Shown here: in pieces, positions 10,388-26,827 of the stretch
How the letters are laid out: each line of letters opens with the position of its first letter
Numbering within the stretch: position 1 is the stretch's first letter
DNA from: a virus
Taxonomy: Duplodnaviria > Caudoviricetes
Strand: one strand, 5' to 3'
IMG/VR virus record: IMGVR_UViG_3300048598_000287
Location: 192,001 to 256,000 of that record
DNA length: 64,000 bases
Position numbers and translations under genes: made by a program
Notes under the pieces: model-generated
The model's database searches: none
What the model saw: only the letters and a program-made list of their open reading frames with translations
What the model was told of the DNA's origin: nothing

Positions 10388-11086
10388 TCATTTATTATCA
10401 CAGAGCGGCGGATCGCTCTTTGTGGCAGGTTTAGCGGCTATGGAATTGTCCCTTGGCTTCGATATTTTCTTTTTAGTGGTTGGACTTTTCTTTTTTATAA
10501 ACTTTGGCAATTCTTTATCTATATTAGCGCACTGTTTAATTGCTTCAATATTTTCATACTCTTTCTTCTCTAAATATTTTCTATATGAGTCATTACTCAT
10601 ATTGGGATCCCTAAACGGGGCCTCGGCAGCACTTGGGGTATCACGATCCGTATCACCACCACCATTACTGATGCGAACATTTGGATCCGGAATTGTATTA
10701 ACTGTATCGGATGGATCTGTTTGAGCCCCTATATGACCGCTGAACTGATTAATGAACGATGGCATATCATTCACCCGGTTTATTCCAGTTTCAGATGCCG
10801 ACCAATTTTTTACATCGTCCACGGACATTGCCTTATGCGATGACATATCATTCACTCGGGTTATTCCCCGTTCAGATGTTGGCATTTTTTTTACATCGCC
10901 CATGTGCATTGCCTGATGGTTACCATATGTATTACCAGTCGAAGGACGCGGTTCTACGGTTGGGGCAGTAGAACCTGTCGGCGTCTTATCAAACCCGATT
11001 TTTTTGTAATAATGCAGCAGTATCTCTGATATGTTGCTTGTAGCCGATGCAAGATCGGCGAGAGTTTTAATCATGCTAGTTTCCAT
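10388..11086 (-). CDS. Hypothetical protein with two 27-aa repeats
   Basis: ATG 11086 after AGGAG; two imperfect 81 bp tandem units at about 10758-10919. Confidence 0.65.
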   Translation of the reverse strand: METSMIKTLADLASATSNISEILLHYYKKIGFDKTPTGSTAPTVEPRPSTGNTYGNHQAMHMGDVKKMPTSERGITRVNDMSSHKAMSVDDVKNWSASETGINRVNDMPSFINQFSGHIGAQTDPSDTVNTIPDPNVRISNGGGDTDRDTPSAAEAPFRDPNMSNDSYRKYLEKKEYENIEAIKQCANIDKELPKFIKKKSPTTKKKISKPRDNSIAAKPATKSDPPLCDNK

Positions 11087-11158
11087 ACAGTCTCCTGAAA
11101 AAAATGTATATTCAACTGATGATAATATATATTTTATGCTAAACAATAGGATACTCAT

Positions 11159-11608
11159 ATGATATCGTCAGGACTTCTTATAACAGATGGAATCCGTTTC
11201 TTGGCAGAGCTTCCTCTATACCAATCTCCCATAGATCATGGATATGATCTTCCAAAAGGACATGTCGAGCCATTTGATGCCGATTATAGAGCCAGTGCAT
11301 TCCGGGAAGCCAAAGAAGAAACCGGGCATGATTTTGATGCATACATGGATATGGCCGTTCCACTATCTGATTCGCCCGTTAAATATATAAAGGGAAAGCA
11401 GATAATTATTTATCTACTTAAACTCTTACCGGAAGATATGCCGGAAATTTCAGAATATCATTGTGACAGTTTTTTTGCCGATAAGAAAACAGGAAAGCAA
11501 TCACCCGAAGTAATTGCATATGAATACAAGCCGCTTAAAGAAATACGCAGATGGCTTTTCTCAAGTTATGGGAAAACTTTCGATATTCTTAAAATATTCA
11601 CAGAATGA
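11159..11608 (+). CDS. Nudix hydrolase, paralog of 9716-10297 without the leader
   Basis: PKGHVEPFDADYRASAFREAKEETG; shares SSGLLITDG..FLAELP and YDLPKGHVE with the upstream paralog. Confidence 0.85.
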   Translation: MISSGLLITDGIRFLAELPLYQSPIDHGYDLPKGHVEPFDADYRASAFREAKEETGHDFDAYMDMAVPLSDSPVKYIKGKQIIIYLLKLLPEDMPEISEYHCDSFFADKKTGKQSPEVIAYEYKPLKEIRRWLFSSYGKTFDILKIFTE

Positions 11609-11635
11609 AAAATCCCGGCAATGCCGGGATTTTTT
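11608..11635. terminator. Bidirectional intrinsic terminator
   Basis: aaaaatcccggca-a-tgccgggattttt between convergent genes. Confidence 0.8.
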
Positions 11636-12791
11636 AATCCTGATCGCTTACCATATTTCTTTCATGCCTAGAACCTATATATAACAATCCGATGTTGATT
11701 GTATATAGCAAAACACATACAGGAAGCAAAACATTAATATCAAGGTGTTTTAGAAACAACGCCGCTATCCCTGCGAATCCCCATCCGCTAAGAGTAAACG
11801 AATGAATTGTTGATGTATTGTTTATGCCGTATTTATCCGCGATAAAACTAGGAAGAAGAGAGAATCCTCCGCCGTAATTCATATTAAGTATCATAATCAT
11901 TATAACGAACATTATAGTAGATGGAAAGAAAATAGATCCCATGCATATCAGCGCGCTTAATGCAAATACGATAACATACGGAAACCATCTGTTAGTATGA
12001 TCACTTATCCATGCGAATCCAAACCTTCCGCCTGCATTGAAAACTGCGCTCAATGTGCAAAATACCGTTGCAAGTCCTATTTCTACCCCTAAATGCTTAT
12101 ATAGTTGGGCTTCCTGTGAAATGAAGGCAAGACCGCATGCGATGTTCAGGAAGAAGAACAGGCAGGTTGAAATATATGGCAACGTGAATGCAATATTCTT
12201 AAGCTTTACAGTTTCGACATTTTTTGCCATATAGTTAACGGGAAATTTACAGAAAAGAAAGGCGCAGATGACCAGCGGTATAAGATATATCCCGGTAAGT
12301 ATGTAAAATGCATTATCTATTGAGAAATTACTTGTCAGATATGTGTAAAGCGGACTTGAAAATGATTTGGCAAGTCCGAACGAAAGTATAGCTATTGCGC
12401 TTGCTACCGCTTTGTTATGTCTGAAATACAGCATCAACGTTTTTATTGGTGCCACATATCCAAGTCCGCAGCTGCATCCGAACAGGAATCCGTAGGAAAT
12501 GTAGAACAGTGTAACGCTATGTATATGGCAGGCTAGTCCGCTAAGCATGAATCCAGATGCGAACAGAACGACTGACATGACATATACCTTTTTAGGATTC
12601 TTCTCGACGAATTTTCCCATGAACGCCGCGGATAGTCCAAGAAACAATATTGCAAGAGAAAACGCAAATGACATGTCATGATTTAACACTGCTGTCACAT
12701 GGCTTGAAAGAAGACTCCACGCATATACCTGACCTATGCATAGCGAAAGAAAAATTGTTGCCAGGACTGTCCTTATCTGAAGGATTTTCAT
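11634..12791 (-). CDS. MFS transporter, oxalate:formate antiporter (OFA)-like
   Basis: About 12 hydrophobic segments; IGQVYAWS, FLGLSAAFMGKFVEK, GLGYVAPIKTL, FNAGGRFGFAWISD and YGGGFSLLPSFIADKYG motifs. Confidence 0.85.
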   Translation of the reverse strand: MKILQIRTVLATIFLSLCIGQVYAWSLLSSHVTAVLNHDMSFAFSLAILFLGLSAAFMGKFVEKNPKKVYVMSVVLFASGFMLSGLACHIHSVTLFYISYGFLFGCSCGLGYVAPIKTLMLYFRHNKAVASAIAILSFGLAKSFSSPLYTYLTSNFSIDNAFYILTGIYLIPLVICAFLFCKFPVNYMAKNVETVKLKNIAFTLPYISTCLFFFLNIACGLAFISQEAQLYKHLGVEIGLATVFCTLSAVFNAGGRFGFAWISDHTNRWFPYVIVFALSALICMGSIFFPSTIMFVIMIMILNMNYGGGFSLLPSFIADKYGINNTSTIHSFTLSGWGFAGIAALFLKHLDINVLLPVCVLLYTINIGLLYIGSRHERNMVSDQD

Positions 12792-12876
12792 ATATACCTC
12801 TCTATTTATGTTATTAGACGCCGTATGATATTCTTTGAATGCACATAATTCAATGATTCTATAAGAAGTCTAATAA

Positions 12877-13026
12877 CATGATACAGAAAATATAATGAAT
12901 CAATGGAATATATGCAAGACTGGAAGTTAATAAAGATATAATTTATATGAAGGATATAAACTATTAATATGATTGTCCTATCGACACAACATACACTCAA
13001 GTTCGCTAATGCAAGAAAGCAGGATG
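12877..13026 (+). repeat. tnpB-like element 5' end, copy 1 (contains late promoter and first 19 codons)
   Basis: Gap-free 150 bp match to the reverse complement of 24878-25027, with about 20 mismatches counted by eye. Confidence 0.9.
12955..12963 (+). promoter_or_regulatory. Late promoter motif TATAAACTA in tnpB-like end
   Basis: 5 nt before ATG 12969. Confidence 0.7.
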
Positions 13027-13565
13027 AAATTCTCATCCTGCTGTCTGAATGGCGCAGAGTGATGCAGCTGATCTGTGACGACCTGTGGAGTAACGGATAC
13101 TGCTGGATGGAAGACGGATGCATCCATGAGTTCAATGTACGCAAATTCAAGCTCTCATTACCTAAATACCTGGACTACAACCGTTTCAGCATAGACACGT
13201 GGCTAAGCGGACGTATGCTCAGTTAATTGGTCACGTGGCTAAGCGGACGTATGCTCAGTTCATTGGTCACGCAGCTAAGCGGCAAGCTCCGTGCAATGCT
13301 AAGCAAGCAGTCGGCGCGGATATATGTATTTGACAGGCTATGCGGACAGGGCGAATACAGCGAACGGCTCTGGGCAAAGATAGAAGAATCGATGCCGAAG
13401 AAGCCGGATTTAAGTGATGCGGGAATAGAGATCAGCTCTAAATGCGCGGATTTCATGGAAACGCCCGGTGGAAAGTTCTACGGATACGTCAGGATCAAAT
13501 CTACGGGACGAGAACACGTCAGGATTCCCATCTGCAGGCATTCCAGGCTGAAGAAATACACGGAC
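12969..13565 (+). pseudogene. tnpB: TnpB/Cas12f-like RNA-guided nuclease, N-terminal remnant
   Basis: STQHTLKFANARK...TWLSGRMLS...KPDLS...GYVRIKSTG..VRIPI resembles the N-termini of phage-borne TnpB-like proteins (recalled, not searched). In-frame TAA at 13224-13226; no RuvC or Zn-ribbon half; runs into a GC-rich repeat. Confidence 0.6.
13196..13283 (+). repeat. 36 bp tandem duplication inside tnpB remnant
   Basis: cacgtggctaagcggacgtatgctcagtt(a/c)attggt twice, plus a partial third unit. Confidence 0.95.
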
Positions 13566-13737
13566 GGAACCCGGGAACGCCCGGAAAGGTGACGATGTGC
13601 TCAAACGTTCCCGGAGGCTCATTGCACCGGCCCCGCGGGAAATGTAGATTAGACACGCGGAGCGGTGCCGGATCCGCCCGGGGTCGCTGGGCGATGAACC
13701 TCGGGATCTTGCGCCGCAGGTTAGCTAGTCGTTAGGC
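13562..13737 (-). repeat. GC-rich imperfect palindrome, partial attC-like site (copy A)
   Basis: Starts GCCTAAC (RYYYAAC) on the minus strand and has an internal hairpin. Roughly 80% identical, inverted, to 18680-18827. No matching L'/R' end seen. Confidence 0.5.
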
Positions 13738-13856
13738 GAACAAAAAATAAAGCCAGAAAACGCCATTCCTAATATCAAAACAGTCCAGTCGTCCATGACT
13801 GGGCAATATGCATCAGGAGCCCATATTTGCCAAAAAAAATGTATATTTTAAGTAAC

Positions 13857-15509
13857 ATGATAGCTAATATAAACGAACACAAAAGTCGCATAGCGAAGCA
13901 CATCAAGGATAACGGGGTTTATTACACACCTGACAATCTTGCTGACTTTGTTGCACGCGCAGTTTGGAGGAATATTGGAAATCATAAAGTCGGCACCGTA
14001 TTTGATCCTGCTGTAGGCGAAGGGAGCTTATTGAAGGCATTGTTTAAGTATGCCCCAAATAAGACCATTAGTTACAAAGGTTCAGATATAGATCAAGATG
14101 CTATTCAATCATGTATTACGAATGAGGCATTTGGTAGTGAGTTTAAATTTTCAGTTAAAGATTTTGTAGAATCAATTGACCAATCATTTGGCCTGTTTCA
14201 AGATATTAATGTTGAATATTCTGATGTTATAATTATGAACCCGCCTTATGTAAGAACTCAGAATCTTTCAAATGAAAAAATTAAGACTGTTGCAAAAGAG
14301 CTAGGATTAACAGGGCGTGTTGATTTAGCACATGTATTTATTGCTGGTTCTGCACGGTTTTTGCGAGCAGGTGGAATACTTGCTGTAATTACTTCGAATA
14401 AATTTATGCAAACTCTTGCAGGAGAGGGTCTTCGAATCGTCATAAAGAATGAATTTGAAATCTGTGAAGTCTGGGACTTTGGAGATACAAAACTATTTGG
14501 CGCGGCGGTTCTTCCAATGGTTATGGTTTTGCGAAAGAAACCATGCGAAAATGGACAGGGTGAATTTTATTCTTGTTATAAATGTAATGAAAATCAAAAC
14601 AGGAATTTACCAGTCGAAAACGACAGTCTAATTAATGAACTTATTAGCGCGGGCTTTACTATCAACTGCGGTTCATTACTTAATGGAGCTAGCGAAAATC
14701 GTAAAGTCTGGGTATCTTCAGATGAACAAACAAATAAGTTTCTTGATTCAGTGAAAAAGAATTGCTGGAGAACATTTGGAGATGTATCAAAAATATCTGT
14801 TGGAATCAAGACAACTGCCGATGATGTATTTATCAAGCAAAACTGGAATAGCTTTATACCAAGACCAGAGCTACTTAAACCGCTAGTGACACATGAAGTG
14901 GCTGGAAATATTTATCCTTCCGATATCCAGTCAACCCGCTCCGTATTGTACACACATGAACGTGATGGCGCAAAAAAAAGACCTGTAGATCTTTCTCTAT
15001 ATCCAATCTCTAAAAAATTCCTAGAATCCAATAGAGCACGCCTTGAATCTAGAGATTATATAAAGAAAGCAGGTAGACTTTGGTATGAAATTTGGGTGCC
15101 ACAGGATCCAGCAGTATGGTCAAAGCAAAAAATCGTATTTCGTGAAATTTCAGAGTTGCCACAATTTTGGCTTGATAATAGTGGCTCTGTTGTAAATGGC
15201 GATTGCTATTGGATTGCATTTGATGAATCTGCTCATCCAGATCTTATTTGGTTAATGCTTGGAATTGCCAATTCTGCATTCATTGTTAAATATTACGATG
15301 TTGTATTTAATAATAAAATATATGCTAATCGTAGGCGATTTATGGCTCAATATGTTCAAACATTTCCAATACCAAATCCTGAATCAAAAAGCTCTAAGGC
15401 CATTATTGATTTAGTCAAAGTGATTTTCAACGATAGACTTCCTCAAGAGTCTTGGGCTCATAAGTTAGATACACTTGTTAATAAATCATTCGGATTAGAT
15501 AAATCCTGA
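13857..15509 (+). CDS. Type II N6-adenine DNA methyltransferase (gamma class, TaqI/Eco57I-like), intact
   Basis: GVYYTP, FDPAVGEG (motif I), MNPPY (motif IV), and a C-terminal TaqI_C-like region (KIVFREISE). Confidence 0.9.
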   Translation: MIANINEHKSRIAKHIKDNGVYYTPDNLADFVARAVWRNIGNHKVGTVFDPAVGEGSLLKALFKYAPNKTISYKGSDIDQDAIQSCITNEAFGSEFKFSVKDFVESIDQSFGLFQDINVEYSDVIIMNPPYVRTQNLSNEKIKTVAKELGLTGRVDLAHVFIAGSARFLRAGGILAVITSNKFMQTLAGEGLRIVIKNEFEICEVWDFGDTKLFGAAVLPMVMVLRKKPCENGQGEFYSCYKCNENQNRNLPVENDSLINELISAGFTINCGSLLNGASENRKVWVSSDEQTNKFLDSVKKNCWRTFGDVSKISVGIKTTADDVFIKQNWNSFIPRPELLKPLVTHEVAGNIYPSDIQSTRSVLYTHERDGAKKRPVDLSLYPISKKFLESNRARLESRDYIKKAGRLWYEIWVPQDPAVWSKQKIVFREISELPQFWLDNSGSVVNGDCYWIAFDESAHPDLIWLMLGIANSAFIVKYYDVVFNNKIYANRRRFMAQYVQTFPIPNPESKSSKAIIDLVKVIFNDRLPQESWAHKLDTLVNKSFGLDKS

Positions 15510-16104
15510 TGGTATTGGTATTTGTAGCTTTGTATTCTTGACCTTTCCTTCAAATCGAGGAAAGAACTTAAAGAACTCTTTACCAGAGCACAAATAGTAA
15601 TTTTCAATAGTTAGGCTATCCTCAAGAATTGATGCGTAAATAATGAGGTAGCGAACCATATACGCAAGATAGGGTGTTTTCCAAGCAGCATCAATTACAA
15701 AATCCTCATCAGGCTGATGGAGCCCCAAATCAATTGTTGGAGATGTTTGAAGCTTAATCTCTAAAAGTTGATTTGGGATATCTGGAAACTGACCACTATC
15801 TTGCCCAATTTCATAGCAAAGTAAGCGACAAATCTTTTCATGAAGATAATATCCTCTATTTCGATCATCGGTCATTCCTCCATAAGGAAATTGCATTAAG
15901 AGCAGAGGCTTGAGTTGCTGGCCAATCTCATCAATTGTTAATAGTGTTCTCGGGATTGGTTCGTCTAAGCACGATGCTTGAGAATTAAATTTAAGAGATG
16001 TTCCTTTTGGCCTTACTTCAAAACTATCAGAAGAAAGTATACGAGATGTAAGTTGCTTAGGCTCTAGTCTTGCTTGATATTTATGTGTAAGTGTTCCAGT
16101 TTTA
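15495..16104 (-). pseudogene. Putative cognate restriction endonuclease, 5'-truncated by IS256
   Basis: Convergent with the MTase; GQFPDIPNQLLEIKLQ fits a PD-(D/E)xK motif. The frame stays open upstream of ATG 15896 (KTGTLTHKYQAR...) right up to the IS end at 16105. Confidence 0.7.
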
Positions 16105-17449
16105 GATAATGCAACCCTTTTTTCTGTAAATTTATTTCTTCACTTTCTTCATCGCTTTGGGGTTTAAGTAAATCTTACCATCAGTCCATTCGTCGTTTTG
16201 CTCCATAAGTAGAGCACCAACAAGCCTTAGACATGATTCATCATTAGGGAATATCCCTACGACACGGGTTCTACGACGTATTTCTTTGTTCAGTCTCTCT
16301 AAACAGTTGCTAGTCCTGATCTTGCGCCATGCATCCTGTTTGAAGGCATAGAAAGTCATTCCGTCTTCATAGTTCGCTTCTAGCCAAGAGCTGAAATCGG
16401 AGGCCCGCTTGCGGTACTGCCCTATTATTTTCTTGGCCACGGCTCTGGCTTGTTCGAGGGTCTCTTGTCCATAGATACGGCGCATGGCTTCGCCTATCTC
16501 TTTGCGCATGTCGTTTCTTGGCACCCTGTTCTGGGCGTCTTGTGCCATATGGAAAAGGCATCGTTGCCAAGGGACTGATGGAAATACTGCTTTGCGGGCA
16601 TTACGAAGTCCTGCGTGATCATCGCTTATAATCAACTCCATTCCTGTAAGACCCCTACCGGTTAATGACTCTAAGAATTGTCTCCAGTTTGTTTCGGCTT
16701 CACTGCTAGAAGTGTCTACACCTAAAATCTCTCGCTGGCCCTTCGCATTGAGTCCAACTGCGATCAGTATGGCCCGATCGCATACTTGACCGTCCTTGCG
16801 TACTTTCTGATATTGAGCGTCCAGCCATACGACTTGCATGGGGCCCAGTTCTCGGCTCCTGAATTTCTGCACCTCCGCATCAAGGCCCTGCGCTGCCTTG
16901 GAGACCTGGGATGAGCTTATTTCAAGCCCGCAGAGTTTCTCCAGTATCCTTGTGACCTTTCGGGTCGATACGCCTTGCACATACATTTCTGCCAGAGCTA
17001 AGCGTAACGCCTTTTCAGATCTTGTGGCTGCCTCTAAAGACTTGGGATAAAACCCACTTTCTCGGGTTTGCGGAATGTCTAAGGCTACTTTTCCTAAACC
17101 TGTCGTTATTGATCGAGGTTTAAACCCATTAGCATAGTCCATACGCTCATCAGTACGCTCATAGGGTTGTGCTTTCAGGTAGCTTGATCGTTCCACTTTC
17201 ATTGCCTCATTCATCATAATCCGAAATAAGTCGAGGATTGCATCAGGGCCTCGCTCCACAAGCATGTTTAAAATGTCTGCGGAATTTGTATATTCAGCAT
17301 TGGAGTTCTTCATCTGTTTTCCTTTAGTTGAAGTTTGTCGTAATTCCAAAACTAAAAGAATTGAAGGACTCCATCTGGCCCTTCCCCAATCACCGTAGGG
17401 TGACTTGGTGGAGGGGCTGATGAATTTACAGAAAAAAATTTACACTATC
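16105..17449 (-). mobile_element. IS256-family insertion sequence (1345 bp)
   Basis: Imperfect terminal IRs (gataatgcaac...ttctgtaaat / gatagtgtaaa...ttctgtaaat) around a transposase gene; flanks show no target-site duplication. Confidence 0.92.
16132..17349 (-). CDS. IS256-family DDE transposase
   Basis: AEMYVQGVSTRKV, WLDA, ISDDHAGL, WQRCLFH and TSNCLERLNKEIRRRTRVVGIFPN motifs. Confidence 0.95.
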   Translation of the reverse strand: MELRQTSTKGKQMKNSNAEYTNSADILNMLVERGPDAILDLFRIMMNEAMKVERSSYLKAQPYERTDERMDYANGFKPRSITTGLGKVALDIPQTRESGFYPKSLEAATRSEKALRLALAEMYVQGVSTRKVTRILEKLCGLEISSSQVSKAAQGLDAEVQKFRSRELGPMQVVWLDAQYQKVRKDGQVCDRAILIAVGLNAKGQREILGVDTSSSEAETNWRQFLESLTGRGLTGMELIISDDHAGLRNARKAVFPSVPWQRCLFHMAQDAQNRVPRNDMRKEIGEAMRRIYGQETLEQARAVAKKIIGQYRKRASDFSSWLEANYEDGMTFYAFKQDAWRKIRTSNCLERLNKEIRRRTRVVGIFPNDESCLRLVGALLMEQNDEWTDGKIYLNPKAMKKVKK

Positions 17450-17850
17450 GAATCTTCGGCAGAGACGTAGTTGATTTCGAATTCGTTGACACCGAAAGAA
17501 TGGATGATGTTTTTTAGTTCCGAAATCAGTTTCTGCTCAATGTAAGTCCTGGCATTTTTGCGAAGCTTGTCACGCTGATTCTTGTTACTTTGGGTTATAC
17601 CGAAAAAAGATTTGTCAATGGCAATGTCGATATCTTCGGAAAAGCGTCGAATGAGCTTCCATCCTTTGCTGAGGGATGTTCCTCCTTTGAACGAAAAGGA
17701 TCCTTTGCAGGAGGACAAGGAAAGAGCCTTGAGAAGGGTGGTCACCCACCAGTCTTTTTCGATGATTGTGTCACTGACACCGGTTTTCTCCGAGGCTTGC
17801 TCGAGAAGTGTCCTTTTTTCGGAGAGGGTGTATTTGCTCCATGAACTCAT
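17450..17850 (-). pseudogene. AbiEii/AbiGii-family nucleotidyltransferase toxin, 3'-truncated by IS256
   Basis: IEKDWWV and FKGGTSLSKGWKLIRRFSEDID motifs; only about 134 codons precede the IS terminus. Confidence 0.85.
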
Positions 17851-18458
17851 GTCAAGGCTCCTTTGACTGTGCAGCGCATCCACGTCGGCATTAAAAGGAT
17901 GTCTTTTTCAAAGGATTTTTCTTTGGAGCAGGCTAAAACGAGTTCTATTATCCTTGCACGTTGTTTTTCGGAAATATCATTTTCTCCGATTTCCTTGAGT
18001 GCAAGCATAAGCAGTAGCATTCTCTTGTCATTGAACAGAGCGTATTTCGCGGTTTGTCGCTTTAAGATAATGCTTCTTTTGCCAATTTTGATAGTTCTTG
18101 ACGATCCGGTGGTGACGAATTCTTCTTTTGTCGGAACCTGGTCGGAAAGGCCGAGAGCGTTTGCCGCGGTGACCCCAGCAGGAACAATGTCGACTTTGTC
18201 CCTTTCGGCAATTGCATATGCGATTTCTTCAAGGGATGGGAATTCTGTCCCGAAACGATTTTTTTTCGGATACAAGTAAACGCCGCCATATAGACGAATG
18301 AGATCTCCGCCCTTTGCCATTCTCGAAAAGGCTCGGGTTATGGCGGATTCCTCGCCAATGGAAGCGTAGTCCTTGACACAATGAATCTTGCCTCGGCCTT
18401 TGGCCTTGATGACTTCCTGAAGTTTTTTTGTCAGGTCTTTTTGCATGTTTTTATTCAC
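17847..18458 (-). CDS. DUF6088/AbiEi-like type IV antitoxin, intact
   Basis: N-terminal wHTH-like region (AFSRMAKGGDLIRLYGGVY) and AANALGLSDQVP motif; overlaps the start of the AbiEii gene. Confidence 0.8.
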   Translation of the reverse strand: MNKNMQKDLTKKLQEVIKAKGRGKIHCVKDYASIGEESAITRAFSRMAKGGDLIRLYGGVYLYPKKNRFGTEFPSLEEIAYAIAERDKVDIVPAGVTAANALGLSDQVPTKEEFVTTGSSRTIKIGKRSIILKRQTAKYALFNDKRMLLLMLALKEIGENDISEKQRARIIELVLACSKEKSFEKDILLMPTWMRCTVKGALT

Positions 18459-18497
18459 CCTTATGTCCGAAATTTAGTAAAAAAATCAGACATAAGG
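18459..18497. promoter_or_regulatory. Inverted repeat, candidate AbiE autorepression operator
   Basis: ccttatgtc...gacataagg immediately upstream of the antitoxin start; AbiEi proteins are known to bind promoter IRs. Confidence 0.5.
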
Positions 18498-18676
18498 AAA
18501 TCTCGCCATAAATAACTATCATATTCTGTTTTTGAATTTAACATTCATTTTAAATTCCCGCTTAAACATTTTTCCCACTTATGTTATTATAGTACCTTTT
18601 CCTTTCTCCATTGGTGTAAAAATAAATTTTCTCACCTTTTTCCCCAGTTGTGCTATCATATTCTACGCTATTATAA

Positions 18677-18827
18677 TCATAACGACTAACTAACTCACAG
18701 CGCAGGATCCCGAAGAAGTCCATCGCCTAACGCCCCCGGGCGGATCCGAGCCAGCTCCGCGTTCCAAATCTACATTTTTTGCGGAACCGGTCCAATGAGC
18801 TTCCGGGAACGTAAGAGCCCATTGTCA
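18677..18827 (+). repeat. GC-rich partial attC-like site (copy B)
   Basis: Begins tcaTAACgactaactaac; inverted homolog of 13590-13734; merges into the DHH gene. Confidence 0.5.
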
Positions 18828-19450
18828 GGCAGGTCCTTTATGTCAAGGGAAGAATATTCTTTATCCAGGTCTATGGCATGCTGCTTAAGCCATTCGGATT
18901 CTTCGGGTGTCATTTCAGTATGTCCGTCAGAATATGCCTGTATCCATGAGTCGAAAGTATATTTTTCCTTGAACAGTTCAGTTATTTCCTGCGCCTTCGC
19001 AAATCTTGGATCATTTTTCTGCCACCGATCAAACACGTCCACATATCCGATAAGTACAGAAAGATGGATAAGGTCAAAATGCGCCTTGAAAAAATCATAG
19101 CATAGCATAGCTCCGCACTTTGATGTATCTATGATGATTCCATTGGCCGGATCATTATATTTCATAGCCGTGGGGTGATGGTCAAGGACAAGTATAGGAA
19201 GTCCGGTGCCACGAAGTATCCCCATTATCTTTTCAGGATAATAATCAGATGCGATTATACAGTCATATCCATCGGATATGGCAGGAATCTGTTCGCCTAC
19301 GCTTTCTTCTACATACCCATACCGCATTTCAATATACGTTATGTCATGATATACATTCTTCAGAACTAGATGCGATGCAGCGCCGTCCAAATCATAATGG
19401 GTAAGGTTAAGCACTTTAAGCGTAGGATTTTAAAAATATTCAAGATTCAT
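18813..19450 (-). pseudogene. DHH-family phosphoesterase pseudogene
   Basis: THYDLDG and LDHH motifs. In-frame ATG 19450 is followed by TAA at codon 7 (MNLEYF*NPTLKVLNLTH). The 3' end is replaced by repeat copy B and no DHHA1 region is present. Confidence 0.75.
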
Positions 19451-19500
19451 ATGTTTGTCCTATTGGGTTTTGAATGGATGAAAGGGAACTATATAATTTT

Positions 19501-19878
19501 CTAACGAAGGCATTCACATTTTTTAAGTGCATCTGATATCTCCTCACGGTCGGCAAGAGATGCTGAATCGGGAAGATGATCGAGTACGAAATCAATATAT
19601 GTATGCATTGATTCACATTTTGATTGATCATCCATATTTGTGTCAATTTGTTCTTCCAGGTCATCAATGTGGCCATCGATATCGCTAAGGCATTCCTTGA
19701 TGGATACTGCATCAAGCTGATTAACGATTTCGGTAAGCAGATCGGTAACCTGTTTCATTGTATATGTAGAACCCGGATCCGTTTTAGCAATCTGGGACAT
19801 CTTTTCAGACAGCAGTCGGCTCGTGTTGTCTATATATTCTTCGGCATCATCGGTATGTACTGCTAAATAATGATACAT
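19501..19878 (-). CDS. Hypothetical protein (125 aa, acidic)
   Basis: ATG after AAGGA; co-oriented with neighbours. Confidence 0.65.
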   Translation of the reverse strand: MYHYLAVHTDDAEEYIDNTSRLLSEKMSQIAKTDPGSTYTMKQVTDLLTEIVNQLDAVSIKECLSDIDGHIDDLEEQIDTNMDDQSKCESMHTYIDFVLDHLPDSASLADREEISDALKKCECLR

Positions 19879-19914
19879 ATGAATCCTTTTTTGAATGGGT
19901 ATCCGTTAATATAG

Positions 19915-19944
19915 AAATACATAGCCACGAGTGGCTATGTATTT
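19915..19944. terminator. Hairpin / probable terminator
   Basis: aaatacatagccac-ga-gtggctatgtattt, a perfect inverted repeat. Confidence 0.55.
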
Positions 19945-19956
19945 AAATTAAACGCA

Positions 19957-20271
19957 TCATCGCTTTGCAAATTTTGTCATCTTATCGCAAATCGTGCATA
20001 TAAGCTTGACATCATCAACGCGCATATGGCTAAGTTCTTTAATGCCAGATATGGCGTCTACGTTTTTCTTAAGTTCTTTCATGGTCTCATCGGCATCAAG
20101 CGTAACTCCGCTCAACTTAGCTGATTCAAACAATGCATCGATGAGTCCGGAGGATTTAAGCACCGCCATCCTACGATCACTGTCCCATATATCATCATTT
20201 TCTGATGAAGTTGTATTGCTAGACGTATTCCTAGAAAAGAATGCGTCTATTATTGATTTTATTATGGTCAT
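19957..20271 (-). CDS. Hypothetical protein (104 aa)
   Basis: ATG after AAGGAG. Confidence 0.65.
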   Translation of the reverse strand: MTIIKSIIDAFFSRNTSSNTTSSENDDIWDSDRRMAVLKSSGLIDALFESAKLSGVTLDADETMKELKKNVDAISGIKELSHMRVDDVKLICTICDKMTKFAKR

Positions 20272-20283
20272 TTTATCATCTCC

Positions 20284-22086
20284 TTATGGTTTAATGAAAT
20301 TTCTTAATATTATGCAATTCGGAATTTTCTGAATATCCGTATTATCGGCGCGCGTGTCACTTATACTCTTGCTATCGACTCTGTCATAATAATTGCATTC
20401 TTTATTATCCGGTTCGTTTACCGTCAATGGCATTACGCGTTGACTATCGGCGGCAACTTTCTTCCTTATATGCTCCATGGCGGCGCATAGGAATTTTTCG
20501 AATCTTTTTGATAGCTCGGTTGTTTTATCAAATGCATCGTAGCATTGGAAAACCGGGGATTTTTTATCCGATTCGGTGAAAAAATCAAAATTAACTTCAG
20601 CGCATACAGTTTTCCAATTGAAAAACATGGATTTCCTATTTATGAGGGATCCAAGGCAATGGTGAAATTTCACCACATATGCCCTCATCTGAAAGGTAGT
20701 CTTTATACGGAAATGTTCAATATACCACGGCATTTTATATGGGCATTTCATTATGTCATCATTAGGTATTATATTAAGTGCAGATTCGGCCATCGCCCTT
20801 TCATGTATTTCAGAACATTGCTTTAAAACAGTTTTCGCCGTCTTTCCTGAAGGAATGCATAATGGTATCTTTCCGTCGAGTTCCTTTATTATAGTTAACG
20901 CATCATTTAGATATGTATTAAAATCATGGATAAGCCCTAGCCGTATATGATATTCAGTTGTATCTTTTGAGTCTGGCTTAAAAAATTCAAACATTGATAA
21001 AAATGCACGTTTATCAGTAGATATTTTGATAAGGATTTCGGATATTGTTTGCCGGTTTAATTCAGTCATACGGTAATATTCAGCATCAACAGGCTCATCC
21101 GCAGCCTCCATACTATCATCTATGTCCGTATCCTCCATGATATCGTGCTGGTTACCATGGATTTTTCCTAAATTTTCATATGCTGAATTGATGATAAGCC
21201 GTGAATCATTGTTCAAAGCCCTGCATGTTCCCGTAGCATTTGCTTCCGATGTGAACGGTATGTTAAGAAAATTTTTACAATAGTATATAGATGGGATTTT
21301 GAGAAGATACCTGGATGTTGCTGGTTTACATAATACAGTGTCATATGAATCAGAAGAACAATATTTATGCGGGTTTTCATCAGGTAAAGAAGACGTCAAC
21401 TTATATGTCCATTGTTCCATGGTATCAAAGAAAAGAACATATTTAGGAAACTTTCTGTTCATCTTCTGAAAAATATTCTTTATTTTCTTATTTACTGCTG
21501 CACGAGAAGAACATTCTTTAACATCTATTGCTGTATTATTAATACGGCAGATCAGGACGCCAAAATTAGGTTCCGAATGTTTAGAAATATCTGCTAAAAG
21601 CTGCATCCCGCAATCCGATAGCATTGCCAATTTAATAATGTTCTCTTCAAGCCAATAATGAGTCATATATGACGCATTGATGTTCATTGACCTAGCGCGA
21701 GAAAGTATTTCCTGTATACGGGCAATCATTAAACTGTCAATGCCTAGCCAAGGTGCATATTTATCGATGATGAGCCTTTTAGCTGAATCAGATAATACAT
21801 ATTCATAGATATCATTATTGTCACTGGAATCAGTATGACAATTTATTCTTAGCGGATCGTTATATTTCACATCAATATATGTCCGGTATTTATCGCAGGC
21901 AAAAAATAGTCGCATGTTATCATCAGACATGTTGCAGTCTACATAATCAGAAACGCACAAGATTTTATTTGCATTTAAAGCAGGAGCATCAGAGGCATTT
22001 ATGAAATCAGACCAGTGTAAATAAAATGTTCCATTTGATATACTATCTTTGCTATAACGCATTTGGCATCCTGTATTTGCTTCCAT
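20284..22086 (-). CDS. Hypothetical protein (600 aa), weak PcfJ-like C-terminus
   Basis: Long ORF; FHHCLGS resembles the PcfJ HHCV motif, weakly. Confidence 0.6.
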   Translation of the reverse strand: MEANTGCQMRYSKDSISNGTFYLHWSDFINASDAPALNANKILCVSDYVDCNMSDDNMRLFFACDKYRTYIDVKYNDPLRINCHTDSSDNNDIYEYVLSDSAKRLIIDKYAPWLGIDSLMIARIQEILSRARSMNINASYMTHYWLEENIIKLAMLSDCGMQLLADISKHSEPNFGVLICRINNTAIDVKECSSRAAVNKKIKNIFQKMNRKFPKYVLFFDTMEQWTYKLTSSLPDENPHKYCSSDSYDTVLCKPATSRYLLKIPSIYYCKNFLNIPFTSEANATGTCRALNNDSRLIINSAYENLGKIHGNQHDIMEDTDIDDSMEAADEPVDAEYYRMTELNRQTISEILIKISTDKRAFLSMFEFFKPDSKDTTEYHIRLGLIHDFNTYLNDALTIIKELDGKIPLCIPSGKTAKTVLKQCSEIHERAMAESALNIIPNDDIMKCPYKMPWYIEHFRIKTTFQMRAYVVKFHHCLGSLINRKSMFFNWKTVCAEVNFDFFTESDKKSPVFQCYDAFDKTTELSKRFEKFLCAAMEHIRKKVAADSQRVMPLTVNEPDNKECNYYDRVDSKSISDTRADNTDIQKIPNCIILRNFIKP

Positions 22087-22186
22087 ATATTCTTTTGCTA
22101 AAGTTCATCAGTAATTCTTTAATATAGTAAAAAATAACCGTTATGTCAATGCTATTTTAAAAAATCGCCTGATGTTCCGAATTCCA
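21999..22186. repeat. Direct repeat copy 1 (188 bp)
   Basis: Matches 25023-25207 with 5 substitutions and 2 small indels. Confidence 0.95.
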
Positions 22187-24935
22187 CTTTGGGGAGGGCA
22201 TCGACGATGTCCATGGTTTTGATGCTTAGGTCGATGACAGAAAGGAGGGTGTCGAGGATGTAGCGGGGGTTTTGGTGTTCTTTTGCCCAGTCGTTGCAGT
22301 CGTTTGTGATTAGGCTCGCTTTGTCCTGGGTGACGGCATAGCGCTCGACTATCCAATCGATGGCGGATTTACCGTTTACGATGTAATCGTAGGCACGGGC
22401 GGGAATGTTTTCAATGGTGATCTGAGGGTTGTAGAGAATCTTGAATTTGTCGGACTTGCCTGCGAAGCGCATTTTGTCAGGAATGCGGAAATACTTGTAG
22501 TCTTCAGGGGTGCCGCTTGCGCTTTTGTCCCCTGCGATGTTTATGCCGAGTTTTTTGGCGAGCGCCCTGGCCTCGGCGGTGGATTTCTCATAATTCAGAT
22601 GGAGACCGGCTAGGGCGCGGCCCGCTTTTTCAAAGGCGGCGAAATCTTCGTAGCCGGAGACGAAAATGATTTTCGGGAGCGATTTCTTGAGGTCGTCTTT
22701 GAAAGTTTCCCGGTAGTCCTTGCTGTGGAGGAACCCGTAGACGTAATAGAAGATGTTTTCTTTGGTGATTTTTTTGTTTGCACCGTAGATGCGTCTGGCT
22801 TCAGCTAGAGCCCAGTTGGAGACCCCGTCTTTCCTTTCAAGTTCCTGTGCAAAGAGGTCGCCTTTATTTTGTTCCGAATAGTAATGGAACGGGAAACATT
22901 GACTTTTCCCTATGAGTTCAAGGTCAGGAAGAGTATTTGAAATGATACAGGAAAAATCTTTGGTTACGCCAATTCCAGAAACGCAGATGACGAGGTTTTG
23001 CGTATCGGGGGTGGGGAAAAGACGAGGGCTAAGGCCAAAGCACTCTATTAAATCATTTTGAGCATATAAATTTTGTTTTTGAAAGGGTCGATAAGATCCC
23101 AATCTTACAAAATCATCGGAATATTCAATATTTTTTCCATTGACTAGTGATTTTTTTAGTCCGCGTGTCCAACTTATTTTTGTTGGATCACTGCTGAGAA
23201 TGTCTTCCAGTTTCTTTCCTGATTTTACTGCTTTTTTATATAATTCCCGCTGAGAATTGTAGAAATCTACACATGATTTCATATTCTTTTGCAGGTTTTT
23301 CTCCGAGAATGAATAAACCCAAGAATCTCTATTTGTAGCCACACCAATAGCATTTGTTTCAAACAAACTTTTTGTTCCCGTGTCAAATTTCTTTTCAGGA
23401 GCAAGTGGTGTTAGCGTATCAAATACGCCGCCACGTTGGTTGATCCAGTCGGCTTTTTCGTTGGGTGTAATTTGTTCCCACTTTATATGTTGAATGGATA
23501 CAGCTTCTTTCAATATTTCCAGTTTACGCTCCCGGGTCAGGTAGTCGCCGATGTCGTGGTAATGGATTTCGCAGGGCCGCCCTTTCTTCGCGGGATTGTA
23601 AACGAGGAAGGTGATGGTCACGGGAGTACGGCTGCCGCTCCCGAATATTTTGCCGCCTTCTTTCCTTGAAAGTTCTCCGCTCGTCCGCTGGTTCCCTCGT
23701 AGGTTGAGTACCCAGATGCCCGTGAACTCTTCGACCAGACATTTCCGCATACCGTCCTGCCCGTTGCCGTCCAACCAGCCGCCATTGGAGATAAAGGCGA
23801 CGATGCCGCCTTCCTTGTTCTTTTGAATGCGGTCGCTTGCAAAACGGAATGCCTTGATATAGGAATCGTAAAGGGATTTTTTCAGGTTTGCGGTGGATTT
23901 CGCGGCATAGCTATCTTCAACCCTGGCGTCCAATACAGGGTAGCTTAAATTCTGGGCGTTGTCGTTTGCGCTTTTTTGCCCTACGGAATAGGGCGGGTTC
24001 CCGATTATCACGCGGACAGGAATTCTACGCTGCCGTTCCACTTCCCTGTAGTTGTCATCAAAGTAGCCATCCAGCTTCGCCGCCTCCTGGCTGCTTCCGT
24101 CATCGCTTTCCGCCGTCTGGAAGGTATCGGTCAGGCAGATTCCGTTAAAGGGCAGGTATGCGGCCGACTTGTTCAAATCGTGGTAGACGCTTTCGATGTT
24201 CACGTCGGCAATGTAATAGGCGAGCAGCACGATTTCATTCGCGTGGAGTTCCTTTTTGTATTTGCGCTCCATGTCCTCCTTTTGAATGAGTCCGCTCTGA
24301 AGGAGCCTCGTGATGAACGTGCCCGTTCCCGTGAACGGATCCATGATGTGAACGTCGCGGTTCGTCAGATCGGTTTTGAATTCATCGTGCAGAAGAATAT
24401 TCACGGAATGGATGATAAAGTCAACGCACTCGATCGGCGTATAGACTATGCCCAGTTTTTCAACCGTGGTCGGGAACGCGGATTTGAAGAACTTTTCGTA
24501 GAGTTCCTTGATGACTTTCTGCTTGCCTTCGAGGTTATCGAGCTGTCCGACGTTTGTGCGCACGGAGGTATAGAATTTTTCCAGTTCCCCGGCCTCTTCG
24601 TTCACGCCCTGCTTCTGGAGTTCCCTGATGACGCGGGCCATGGTACGCGATATGGAATTGTTGTCGACGAACTTGTAGTCGGCGAACAGGGCGTCGAATA
24701 CAGGCTGCGTGATCATGTGCTGGGCGAGCATCTGCACCGCGTCGTTTTCGGTCACGGAATTGTTGATGTTCTTCCGGAGCGCCGCCAGATATTTTTCAAA
24801 GAGCTGCTTTGTCCGGCTGTTCTGCTCCGCTCGCAGGTAGTCAATCCGGGCGATGTATTTCTTCGCGATGACGCCGACATCCTGCTTTCTTGCATTCGCA
24901 AAATTGATCGTATGATTTGTTGAACGGGCCATCAT
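22152..24935 (-). CDS. Chimeric orphan methyltransferase: tnpB-like N-terminus, type ISP MTase/TRD, and tail of the neighbouring phage gene
   Basis: GIVYTP, DPFTGTGTF, IIGNPPY, KSQCFP, YVYGFLHS and YIVNGKSAIDW are type ISP (LlaGI/LlaBIII-like) C-terminal motifs; no nuclease or helicase domains. Starts MMARSTNHTINFANARKQD and ends EFGTSGDFLK. Confidence 0.88.
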   Translation of the reverse strand: MMARSTNHTINFANARKQDVGVIAKKYIARIDYLRAEQNSRTKQLFEKYLAALRKNINNSVTENDAVQMLAQHMITQPVFDALFADYKFVDNNSISRTMARVIRELQKQGVNEEAGELEKFYTSVRTNVGQLDNLEGKQKVIKELYEKFFKSAFPTTVEKLGIVYTPIECVDFIIHSVNILLHDEFKTDLTNRDVHIMDPFTGTGTFITRLLQSGLIQKEDMERKYKKELHANEIVLLAYYIADVNIESVYHDLNKSAAYLPFNGICLTDTFQTAESDDGSSQEAAKLDGYFDDNYREVERQRRIPVRVIIGNPPYSVGQKSANDNAQNLSYPVLDARVEDSYAAKSTANLKKSLYDSYIKAFRFASDRIQKNKEGGIVAFISNGGWLDGNGQDGMRKCLVEEFTGIWVLNLRGNQRTSGELSRKEGGKIFGSGSRTPVTITFLVYNPAKKGRPCEIHYHDIGDYLTRERKLEILKEAVSIQHIKWEQITPNEKADWINQRGGVFDTLTPLAPEKKFDTGTKSLFETNAIGVATNRDSWVYSFSEKNLQKNMKSCVDFYNSQRELYKKAVKSGKKLEDILSSDPTKISWTRGLKKSLVNGKNIEYSDDFVRLGSYRPFQKQNLYAQNDLIECFGLSPRLFPTPDTQNLVICVSGIGVTKDFSCIISNTLPDLELIGKSQCFPFHYYSEQNKGDLFAQELERKDGVSNWALAEARRIYGANKKITKENIFYYVYGFLHSKDYRETFKDDLKKSLPKIIFVSGYEDFAAFEKAGRALAGLHLNYEKSTAEARALAKKLGINIAGDKSASGTPEDYKYFRIPDKMRFAGKSDKFKILYNPQITIENIPARAYDYIVNGKSAIDWIVERYAVTQDKASLITNDCNDWAKEHQNPRYILDTLLSVIDLSIKTMDIVDALPKVEFGTSGDFLK

Positions 24936-25027
24936 ATAAATAGTTTATATCCTTCATATAAATTATATCTTTATTAACTTACACTCTTGCATATATTCCA
25001 TCAATTTACTATATTTTCTGTATTATG
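24878..25027 (-). repeat. tnpB-like element 5' end, copy 2
   Basis: Homolog of 12877-13026; contains TATAAACTA and the ATG of the chimeric MTase. Confidence 0.9.
24941..24949 (-). promoter_or_regulatory. Late promoter motif TATAAACTA upstream of chimeric MTase
   Basis: 5 nt before ATG 24935. Confidence 0.7.
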
Positions 25028-25207
25028 AAATCAGACCAGCGTAAATAAAATGTTCCATTTGATATGCTATCTTTGCTATAACGCATTTGCATCCTGTATT
25101 TGCTTCCATATATTCTTTTGCTAAAGCTCATCAGTAATTCTTTAATATAGAAAAATAACCGTTATGCCAATGCTATTTTAAAAAATCACCTGATGTTCCG
25201 AATTCCA
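25023..25207. repeat. Direct repeat copy 2 (185 bp)
   Basis: Contains the 3' end of gene 25173-26699, the intergenic region, and a frameshifted 5' stub of gene 20284-22086. Confidence 0.95.
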
Positions 25208-26699
25208 TCCGTTCCTCTTCGGTAAATGTAGGAATTTCAATATTTGAAAGGGCGTCGTCAAAAATTTTCTTAGCTGCTGAAGCATATCGTTCATCTACGA
25301 TAATGCTGTCATGAACGGTGCAGACAGGACAATGTAAGTTATTTTTAATATTTTTGTAAACTATTCCAAATACAAGATGGCTTTCTGTACGTTGAAGTTC
25401 ATGCGCCAAAGCTGTATGATTTTTATATTTAATTAGCTGTATTACCTTATAAAGAGAAGGAAACTCTGCTTTCCATATATATTGAATGGCTTTAACGAGC
25501 CGATGCTTCTTGTGAGAGAAGAACGGTCCGCAGAAAAGGCATGTGAGAAATTCTTTCTTGACTTCAGAACGGTCGCATGAAAGACACATAGAATCATTAA
25601 GAAAAGAAAGAAAATGTTCATAAAGAGAACCAGAAACAAGAAGTGAACGATAGGAAGAGAGGTCAGAGTGGAAAGTTTTAATGAAAGAAGAAGTAAATAA
25701 AGTGGAATAATGTGAGTAATCAAATTTCATATCTATATATGAATCCACAATATGTTCTCGCCCGTCATAATGTGATATGAAGTTATCGAACACCTTGTAT
25801 AGAAAAGCTCCCTGAGAACTTTTAATGTCAATTCCCACAGTTGGACGTCCATCACATAATATACAGTTTTTTCTGACTTCTTTTTTTATCTGCGTTATGT
25901 TTGTATGGACTCGTCCATATGCGTCTCTTTTGCAATATATAGAATATGGATCATTGACATATCCGTCAAATGCGTCAACCTTGTGCAATTCTTCAGACAT
26001 TCGTTCGGCTGATATCTTATTTTTTGATACCATATCTGATAATATTCGATGGCTTTTATCTTTATCTATTGAAAAATGCTGTAAATCTTCATATAGTTCC
26101 CTGATTTGTGGAAGACTCATCTGTTCTTTCTTTACTTCTTCTGCATGAAGCGAAAGCCTTCTATAAAGTCTTGGATTTGAAATTTTAATTACCCGGACTC
26201 CGCCCTGCCTTTTTGGAATGTCGCCTGATGTCTCCTGATTTTTTGTAATCAGATATCTATGGACATATAACAGGAAATCTGAAGTGAACCAATAGTGCTT
26301 ACATTTTCCTTTCACTTCTTTCGTACCTTTTATATATGAGTCGCTTCTACCGATGATGCCCATTTGTATAAGGATTTTTACATATTTTAGATAGTTAGAT
26401 CCTATTATTCGATTGTATATGCGTGAATATATAGGAACCGCCCATCGTGTAAGATCTATAGGCCATCCATGTTTCATTGCTATGTTGAATGCTATCTGAT
26501 ATCGTCGATATATCGTATTTATGATGTACAGAAGGTATTCATAGTTTTCCGCTATGCTTCCAGATAGCTCATTATTGGTTTGCATATATTCAAATATACG
26601 GTTAGGCACAAGCATCTTGTCGAAAGTGTATAAGCTGTCCGACTCTGCGAAGTGGTCTAGTACGTTTATTGAAGAAAATGCGTTTTTTGTCATCGCCAT
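25173..26699 (-). CDS. Divergent family-A polymerase-like protein
   Basis: YGRVH, GIDIKSSQ (motif A-like), RSEVKK (motif B-like), LQRTES and TVHDSI (motif C-like) in the expected order; no exonuclease motifs seen; start uncertain. Confidence 0.55.
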   Translation of the reverse strand: MAMTKNAFSSINVLDHFAESDSLYTFDKMLVPNRIFEYMQTNNELSGSIAENYEYLLYIINTIYRRYQIAFNIAMKHGWPIDLTRWAVPIYSRIYNRIIGSNYLKYVKILIQMGIIGRSDSYIKGTKEVKGKCKHYWFTSDFLLYVHRYLITKNQETSGDIPKRQGGVRVIKISNPRLYRRLSLHAEEVKKEQMSLPQIRELYEDLQHFSIDKDKSHRILSDMVSKNKISAERMSEELHKVDAFDGYVNDPYSIYCKRDAYGRVHTNITQIKKEVRKNCILCDGRPTVGIDIKSSQGAFLYKVFDNFISHYDGREHIVDSYIDMKFDYSHYSTLFTSSFIKTFHSDLSSYRSLLVSGSLYEHFLSFLNDSMCLSCDRSEVKKEFLTCLFCGPFFSHKKHRLVKAIQYIWKAEFPSLYKVIQLIKYKNHTALAHELQRTESHLVFGIVYKNIKNNLHCPVCTVHDSIIVDERYASAAKKIFDDALSNIEIPTFTEEERMEFGTSGDFLK

Positions 26700-26827
26700 A
26701 CAATATACATTTTTCTGAATCATTTTTGGCAAAATTCATGAAAAATGGCAGTTATGCTCATTAAAAACGTATTTTAATGGTGCAGAGCACCTTGGTAAGG
26801 AAATGCTAATGGTTTCGGAGATAACAG

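Follow-up and report, generated by a model that had tools for sequence, protein, structure and literature searches.

Orphan DNA methyltransferases taken by phages from host restriction-modification (R-M) systems act in anti-restriction by self-methylation of the phage DNA. The TnpB nucleases of IS605/IS607 elements cut a transposon-free target beside a transposon-associated motif (TAM) with a guide from the right-end flank, and their own 5' coding region is not cut. Insertion sequences (IS) are, to our knowledge, rare in phage genomes. The locus described here brings these components together. It lies in a window of 64,000 nucleotides (nt), bases 192001–256000 of the 277-kb viral contig IMGVR_UViG_3300048598_000287; judged by relatives that carry Gp23, Portal_T4, UvsW, RecA, and DnaB, the source phage is a large T4-like phage. 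An earlier note on this DNA had reported that two blocks of foreign defence DNA start at the same tnpB-like 5' end (left end A before block 1, left end B before block 2) and had proposed that tnpB-like elements serve as entry points for host DNA. We found that A and B derive from two independent insertions of non-autonomous IS607-family elements, both since decayed, of which they form the left ends. The foreign DNA probably arrived by ordinary IS transposition and short-homology joins, which would have produced an IS-rich counter-defence island. Coordinates of all features are given in Table 1.

Two decayed left ends of IS607-family elements

The gap-free 150-nt match between A and B was exactly as described earlier: 8 mismatched positions fell within the first 95 nt and another 12 within the 55 nt that follow. 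The homology extended 9 nt further upstream (12868–13026, plus strand, vs. 25036–24878, minus strand; 159 nt, 86% identity). The longest identical run was 42 nt, the overall difference was 14%, and a 42-nt left-end core was more conserved between A and B than the coding part. Searches of the 277-kb contig with the left end returned A, B, and one third copy, designated C, as the only matches (E 1e-47 to 1e-75); with a single further copy at such E values, the match between A and B cannot be attributed to chance. A, B, and C mutually differed by 13–18%. The view that A and B are distinct family members stood.

Copy C is located about 100 kb away (genome 96034–97477, minus strand) and has an intact TnpB open reading frame (ORF) of 432 amino acids (aa), with the RuvC motifs GADQG, ENV, and DADINAAKN and a CxxC..CxxC zinc ribbon (CSDCG..CPHCG). 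Its product matched Pfam Cas12f1-like_TNB (PF07282) with 53 bits (cutoff 26.3) and the TnpB and Cas12f chains of the PDB (E 7e-11); the score with NCBIfam guided_TnpB was 67.9 bits (E 9e-19), below the 100-bit cutoff. The nearest cluster representative (P0014, 64–66% identity) is encoded on contig L024, 5 bp downstream of a 194-aa IS607 serine transposase gene, which was recognized by NCBIfam transpos_IS607 with 178 bits (cutoff 110). The RuvC and zinc-ribbon motifs, the Pfam and PDB matches, the IS607 neighbour, and the termini described below confirm that the remnant is TnpB-related, as had been suspected, and refine its assignment to the IS607 type.

Left end A and the following remnant were homologous to C over 12868–13580, with 87% identity at the DNA level and 85% aa identity over TnpB residues 1–192. 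Left end B was homologous to C solely over 25036–24878, that is, through codon 19. Comparison with C thus agrees with the frame breaks at about 200 codons (A) and 19 codons (B) read from the sequence earlier. A 36-bp tandem duplication in tnpB-A (13196–13267) had been missed: its first copy has TAA where the second has TCA, and this in-frame TAA (13224–13226) closes the tnpB-A frame already at codon 86. The resulting 85-aa ORF with the duplication, tnpB-A', was present on 6 contigs. Neither a tblastn search with TnpB-C nor a search for the right-end motif revealed a RuvC half or a right end for A or B, in accordance with the earlier note; no tnpB 3' half was detected in the 277-kb contig away from copy C, and the family right-end motif GACTAACTCT occurred there once, at copy C. 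Outside the window, at genome 45660–45761, tblastn gave a weak match to the TnpB zinc-ribbon region (E 0.02).

The left terminus GTCTnAnnnCATnATAC..ATATAG and the right terminus TTYGACTAACTCT were common to copy C and the elements of contigs L004 and L024; the elements sharing termini with copy C sit in phage contigs of 444 kb and 48 kb. A and B carry the left terminus of the family only and start at the same base as C. From the termini common to related elements and the common start base, it follows that the 150-bp segment is an IS607-family left end with the start of tnpB and not a generic phage promoter; the alternative of an ordinary phage promoter plus gene start, raised in the earlier note, is ruled out by the conserved left terminus in other phages. 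No terminal inverted repeats were present in these IS607-like elements. A tblastn search with the TnpA of L024 found no tnpA in the 277-kb contig, and A, B, and C are therefore non-autonomous IS607 derivatives.

The earlier note had called for an intact copy with an omegaRNA. The intact copy exists as C; guide-RNA families (RAGATH-18, IS605-orfB) gave no Rfam match. The last ~220 nt of tnpB together with the right end were unusually conserved over three diverged copies and contain a terminal hairpin with 6 compensatory pairs, a pattern that is at most suggestive (three sequences only). A 22-mer from the left-end core was absent from IMG/VR, and in the JGI metagenomes it was present only in copy C of the same phage. 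Among proteins with this TnpB N-terminus, none exceeded 756 aa and no fusion to another protein was evident in 197 cluster representatives, a search that 19-residue fusions would escape.

The initial 12 nt of the left end recur in inverted orientation 42 nt from A, which we regard as what is left of a further IS607-like insertion, and the intergenic region upstream of the MFS gene seems to have been repeatedly hit by IS607-like insertions. In the strain variant L030, this intergenic region holds an inner left end with 32 codons of an IS607 tnpA (MRIKLSKYSRENGFRYQTG..; L030:14458–14652).

A strain-variable island and its junctions

In the related phage contigs L014, L016, and L020 (~60% aa identity), the gene order is UvsW, P0122 homologue, DHH (325–327 aa), MFS, and NUDIX. 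The arrangement differs in L018 and L021, where neither DHH nor MFS is found at the P0122 site. None of these five relatives has TnpB or defence genes at the P0122-DHH-MFS site; the 12.4-kb P0122-to-MFS stretch of the window, which is variable among strains, therefore represents an island specific to this lineage and situated at a plasticity hotspot. Its minus-strand order is as follows: repeat R2, left end B, the methyltransferase gene P0001, repeat R1, P0123, a 104-aa ORF, a 125-aa ORF, truncated DHH, the non-coding unit IRb, AbiEi, AbiEii fragment, IS256, restriction endonuclease (REase) fragment, the methyltransferase gene MTase1, the non-coding unit IRa, tnpB-A', and left end A. Megablast or blastn against isolated phages and plasmids gave no match to the flank, the 11.3-kb interior, or the MTase1 leader, and searches of IMG/VR with TnpB, P0122, the IR unit, or full-length REase as queries yielded no close relatives.

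The evidence to which we give most weight came from strain variants whose backbone is 98–99.6% identical to the window. At site A, the empty allele is represented by L030, in which an intact 320-aa DHH gene is followed by the intergenic region and MFS, without left end A or block 1; L029 also has the intact 320-aa DHH, and its contig ends ~260 bp past this gene. In L028 and others, left end A is kept to the ATG only (nt 104), and an unrelated Type II methyltransferase gene, MTase2, follows 137 nt further, then an ISL3 element. MTase2 shares 24% identity with MTase1, and DHH is missing in MTase2 strains such as L028. This arrangement is the commonest allele (49 index blocks). In L047 and L048, a longer flank lies upstream of MTase2 and corresponds to the 3' portion of an IS1595 transposase gene. 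Since they keep this flank on the same backbone, the corresponding junction in L028 (J6) is best interpreted as a deletion within the phage; it shows (G)TATG microhomology between the tnpB start and the IS1595 transposase gene. At site B, L047 is the empty allele, with P0122, a single R, and P0123, and without the Type ISP block and left end B beyond nt 14. Its single R is a mosaic, closer to R1.

Two further variants, L036 and L037, have IRa-MTase1 and IS256 inside an IS5-bounded composite transposon inserted in P0123. Its IS5 ends lie at 250 and 5684, and the duplicated target AATA is found at positions 21794–21797 of the window. MTase1 lies there in the opposite orientation with no left end nearby, and IRa moves together with it. 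Composite transposition is thereby shown directly for MTase1; the arrangement of the window itself has no composite transposon structure. Tabulation of what follows the left end, as the earlier note had advised, gave three cargos in the phage population, namely P0001, MTase1, and MTase2.

At junction J1 (13571–13580), tnpB-A is joined to the natural upstream flank of MTase1 through a microhomology of 8–10 nt, C(C/T)GGGAACGC, as read against copy C and L036, which keeps a longer flank. J2 joins IRb to DHH at about codon 213–216 within an imperfectly similar stretch; the similarity at J1 and J2 amounts to at most 10–19 nt and is imperfect. At J4, the last Type ISP codons are joined to the last 8–11 codons of P0122 at TGGAATTC, and at J5 (24877/24878) codon 19 of tnpB-B is joined to the coupler. 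Alignments of Type ISP enzymes start at residues 17–18 (KQD vs. SKD in LlaGI), which fits a short common stretch around GATG at J5. Microhomology (4–10 nt overall) is readable at J1 and J6 only, the junctions with an outside reference, J4 and J5 having no donor sequence. In each block, tnpB holds one of the two junctions, and the second falls within ordinary phage DNA (DHH at about codon 216; the duplicated P0122 tail).

Table 1. Features of the island and its neighbourhood, with positions in the window.
Feature	Position	Strand	Evidence or remark
MFS transporter gene, left island boundary	11634..12791	-	Pfam MFS_1; 68% aa identity to the MFS gene after DHH in related phages
Initial 12 nt of the left end repeated in inverted orientation (GTCTAATAACAT)	12808..12826	-	42 nt from left end A; also in L028
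Left end A of decayed IS607-like solo-tnpB element, 101 nt non-coding before ATG	12868..12968	+	Boundary common to B and C
tnpB-A remnant, TnpB residues 1 to ~192–204	12969..13580	+	85% aa identity to TnpB-C
IRa, GC-rich (63%) non-coding unit upstream of MTase1, inverted partner of IRb	13590..13734	+	78% identity to 18827–18680
MTase1, intact Type II N6-adenine DNA methyltransferase (Eco57I-type catalytic + TaqI_C)	13827..15509	+	Pfam; PADLOC MTase_II
Cognate Type II REase, C-terminal fragment	15495..16139	-	PADLOC REase_II positions 148–356/359, E 1.4e-47
IS256-family insertion sequence, no flanking target duplication	16105..17449	-	NCBIfam transpos_IS256 355 bits; terminal repeats read
AbiEii toxin, N-terminal fragment, cut by IS256	17440..17883	-	PADLOC AbiEii positions 2–120/309
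AbiEi antitoxin/transcriptional regulator, intact	17847..18458	-	PADLOC AbiEi positions 3–192/202; Pfam DUF6088
IRb, second diverged copy of the 148-nt GC-rich unit, abuts truncated DHH	18680..18827	-	
DHH-family backbone gene, truncated after about residue 216 of 320–327	18812..19450	-	tblastn with L014 DHH gene
Three accessory ORFs without assigned function (125, 104, and 600 aa; the 600-aa one is P0123)	19501..22086	-	
R1, direct repeat	21999..22186	-	96% identity to 25023–25207
P0001, 927-aa chimeric methyltransferase	22152..24935	-	Pfam ISP_coupler, N6_Mtase, Type_ISP_C
Left end B and first 19 codons of tnpB-B	24878..25036	-	Homology to A and C
R2, partner of R1, native position at the end of P0122	25023..25207	-	
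P0122, 519-aa backbone gene without assigned function, right island boundary	25173..26732	-	60%-aa-identity homologues adjoin UvsW in related phages
UvsW-like helicase gene, 573 aa	26828-28546		Next beyond P0122; UvsW match

Chimeric methyltransferase and disarmed defence modules

P0001 consists of tnpB-B codons 1–19, a Type ISP coupler, gamma-class N6-adenine methyltransferase, and target-recognition domain, and the last ~8–11 codons of P0122, and it is in frame on the ATG and 19 codons of tnpB-B. Pfam profiles ISP_coupler (E 5.5e-40), Type_ISP_C (E 2.9e-105), and N6_Mtase were matched, and the motifs DPFTGTGTF and NPPY are present. The protein aligned with residues 556–1404 of LlaGI (E 4.5e-207) and 720–1576 of LlaBIII and covered positions 736–1643 of 1646 in the PADLOC profile; the Mrr-like nuclease and the superfamily 2 (SF2) helicase motor (~735 residues) are missing, so P0001 can only be a methyltransferase. 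The 573-aa helicase beyond P0122 was considered as the Type ISP half that P0001 lacks, separated from it by an inversion, and was rejected, being UvsW-like and syntenic in relatives. Different samples yielded at least 9 contigs that carry exactly this P0001 protein with the same repeats.

R1 and R2 (188 bp, 96% identity) lie on either side of the P0001 block, and each consists of the last 11 codons of P0122, the intergenic stretch, and 14 nt from the start of left end B. P0001 (22152–22186) and P0122 (25173–25207) end in a common C-terminal peptide, EFGTSGDFLK, and among contig ORFs of at least 80 aa only these two end in DFLK, which lends no support to the idea of a clamp-binding tail. If this tail is functional, the methyltransferase would be tethered to a partner of P0122.

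In block 1, the Type II R-M pair is not intact. MTase1 is complete (positions 7–575 of 579 in PADLOC MTase_II, E 1.5e-162) and keeps its own 92-nt leader and IRa. The endonuclease is partial, its N-terminal ~120–147 residues being missing and the gene cut at IS256, which lies between the REase and AbiEii fragments. The AbiE type IV toxin-antitoxin pair is likewise not complete, with AbiEi whole and AbiEii partial. By coverage of the PADLOC profiles, REase, AbiEii, and the Type ISP nuclease-motor half are all truncated, and the protective parts, two or three N6-adenine methyltransferases and the AbiEi antitoxin, are intact. Full-length 333-aa relatives of the REase, in the same 90%-identity cluster as 15498–15896 (cluster of P0327, P0328, and P0330), were observed on other contigs of up to 26 kb, one of them in NCBI, and these contigs may show the donor context.

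IRa and IRb are copies of a 148-nt unit (GC 55–63%, 78% identity) with no common open frame. Their consensus fold retains each of the 36 predicted pairs; one of the changes is compensatory and four are one-sided (two sequences only), and neither Rfam nor IMG/VR contained a match to the unit. It was rejected as a native tail of DHH, as the DHH homology ends at about residue 216 of 327 and the copies share no open frame. IRa was also rejected as the right end or guide RNA of tnpB-A, since it is unlike the 3' end of copy C and its relatives and travels with MTase1 in L036.

The distant relatives have none of the 125-, 104-, and 600-aa accessory ORFs, which also vary between strains through deletions or frameshifts. 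P0123 (20284–22086; 600 aa) is 592 aa long, split in two, or cut to 73 aa in other strains; being variably broken and hit by the IS5 composite transposon in L036 and L037, it appears dispensable. In L039 (3778–5972) and L042, an extra insert of ~2.2 kb lies between two NUDIX genes, at the place corresponding to window ~11080–11285. The insert holds an Eco57I-type methyltransferase gene (354 aa) and an ORF of 312–336 aa and thus marks a second variable methyltransferase site in the same phage.

Origin of the island and comparison with known systems

As stated above, we consider ordinary IS transposition followed by short-homology joins the probable origin of the foreign DNA. Host R-M and toxin-antitoxin DNA would have entered and been reshuffled by ordinary ISs (the IS5 composite transposon, IS256, ISL3, and IS1595), and the junctions would result from microhomology-mediated illegitimate recombination or deletion. 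Such deletions may strip dispensable or harmful DNA, tnpB bodies included, while phage-side selection would retain the protective parts. The tnpB remnants presumably serve as junction sites because they are dispensable DNA; in the island presumed for the ancestor, roughly estimated, tnpB would account for ~40% of what was dispensable, and three of six junctions in tnpB are then unremarkable. A kept left end may supply start signals for transcription or translation, and P0001 probably uses promoter or ribosome-binding signals of left end B.

Several points weigh against this reading. Three junctions are located within the 5' region of tnpB or directly behind it (at codon 1 in L028, at codon 19 in B, and at codon ~200 in A), and each is followed by a methyltransferase gene co-oriented with the left end. 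This pattern is more regular than a purely neutral model predicts, although co-orientation in 3 of 3 has a chance of 1/8 and tnpB would account for ~40% of the dispensable DNA, as noted above. Ordinary transposition and short-homology joins leave the origin of R1 and R2 unexplained (188 bp, 4% divergence, mosaic single-R allele). Possible routes are a Campbell-type integration of a circle with R, a template-switch duplication followed by loss of the second tnpB-B, and recombination of diverged lineages. No donor of the Type ISP part was found, the closest full-length Type ISP genes being ~56% identical. IS256 was not among the 401 Bacteroidales genomes sampled, its plasmid matches were weak only, and the donor bacterium was not found. 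A mis-join across the repeated IS256 is possible, J1, J2, and the path through IS256 being known here from assembly alone. Finally, the earlier note had inferred that the left end can donate a promoter and a start codon. The start codon is indeed donated to P0001, in frame; a scan for sigma-70-type promoters predicted none on the sense strand of the left ends, and donation of a promoter is therefore only something that we infer.

The mechanism put forward in that note was that TnpB elements actively make entry points, that break repair captures host DNA there, and that the left end provides a promoter and start codon. Three different cargos behind truncated tnpB 5' ends in the phage population, the in-frame fusion of P0001 to a tnpB start, and an intact TnpB in the same genome are what this mechanism would lead one to expect. 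We nevertheless regard it as very unlikely. The known TnpB nuclease does not cut its own 5' coding region, and its established target choice does not explain why breaks should occur at codon 1, 19, or 200. For copy C, the presumed guide (16–20 nt by the right end) had no match elsewhere in the contig with fewer than 3 mismatches in 16 nt, and A and B are devoid of a RuvC half. The far block ends are in DHH and the P0122 tail, J1 and J6 show microhomology, and MTase1 also moves in an IS5 composite transposon without TnpB. Moreover, neither IMG/VR nor the JGI metagenomes contained left-end copies save copy C, and no long proteins with this TnpB N-terminus were detected. Entry of host DNA through TnpB-induced breaks was thus not borne out.

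A different possibility, to which we assign a minor though real chance, accepts ordinary junctions and supposes that the left end, with promoter, ribosome-binding site, and ATG, has been kept since it drives anti-restriction genes, the strains swapping methyltransferases. It would fit the retention of left end A to nt 104 in MTase2 strains and to 713 nt in this strain and of left end B to codon 19, the co-orientation of all three methyltransferases with the left end, the better conservation of the 42-nt core than of the coding part, and the prevalence of the MTase2 arrangement (49 index blocks). The fit is reduced by MTase1, which has its own 92-nt leader and IRa and also occurs inverted inside P0123 without a left end. 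No promoter was predicted in the left end, signals of neighbouring genes may forbid its further deletion, and the co-orientation comprises n=3 (p = 0.125). The IS607-like left end might then be a reusable slot, with methyltransferases fused to it (the Type ISP half) or placed downstream (MTase1 and MTase2), which we suggest only tentatively. If true, ends of selfish elements would be recurrently exapted as plug-in sites for counter-defence genes.

The joints could also have been formed in the host, where IS607-like elements lie by defence islands, and imported whole by one crossover in tnpB/left-end homology and a second, illegitimate one. The GC content of the tnpB elements is 46–48% vs. 41% in the phage, which argues that they too came from outside, and the 13–18% differences among A, B, and C fit separate imports. 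However, all contigs with MTase2 or P0001 have the phage backbone, J6 is most readily explained by a deletion that took place in the phage, and no bacterial representative of this TnpB subfamily or of these joints was found, so that such an import of finished joints appears highly improbable. Least probable of all, and in our opinion hardly to be considered, is that the foreign blocks are chimeric joins at repeats in the metagenome assembly. The contig is metagenomic, and IS256 occurs in at least two population contexts and has no target duplication here. Against this stand the block at B, identical with both repeats on at least 9 contigs from different samples, and the tnpB-A' ORF with its duplication on 6 contigs; A and B differ by 14% with an identical run of at most 42 nt, and the similarity at J1 and J2 (at most 10–19 nt, imperfect) is too little for an assembler join.

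With the TnpB capture mechanism unsupported, no new class of system is proposed. The locus is a well-documented counter-defence island that varies among strains and carries an unusual chimeric methyltransferase derived from a Type ISP enzyme; it belongs with known kinds, namely phage orphan methyltransferases and IS decay. The locus is a strain-resolved record of a large lytic-type phage turning host defence DNA into counter-defence, with empty, intermediate, and final alleles preserved. It features a methyltransferase-only Type ISP derivative that starts with the start codon of a transposon and five IS families (IS607-like, IS256, ISL3, IS5, and IS1595) active within a single island of a phage. 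From the methylation specificity of P0001, the recognition site of a host Type ISP enzyme should become readable, which would point to the host.

Compared with known IS607 elements, A, B, and C belong to a family with the RuvC and zinc-ribbon TnpB, the closest relative behind an IS607 transposase, conserved termini, and no terminal inverted repeats. They differ in that the phage contig has no tnpA, two of the three copies are reduced to a left end with 19 or ~200 codons, and Rfam gave no guide RNA. With the Type ISP enzymes LlaGI and LlaBIII, P0001 shares the coupler, the N6-adenine methyltransferase (NPPY), and the target-recognition domains, which align end to end, whereas the Mrr-type nuclease and helicase motor are lacking, the N-terminus comes from tnpB, and the last ~8–11 residues from a phage gene. 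The intact methyltransferases without a working nuclease in a lytic-type phage resemble phage orphan methyltransferases, but here the disarming steps are still visible (REase fragment, IS-cut toxin, half-enzyme) and alternative alleles exist among strains. Between IS5 ends with a 4-bp target duplication in P0123, IRa-MTase1 of L036 and L037 is like a typical IS5 composite transposon; in the window, this structure is replaced by a joint of MTase1 to tnpB-A', and the REase fragment comes after MTase1. An IS end upstream of and co-oriented with a captured gene is also known from ISEcp1 and ISCR, which mobilise the DNA beside them and provide it with a promoter; these, however, remain whole and extend past their own right end, whereas in this phage the tnpB body and right end have been deleted and the joints show microhomology.

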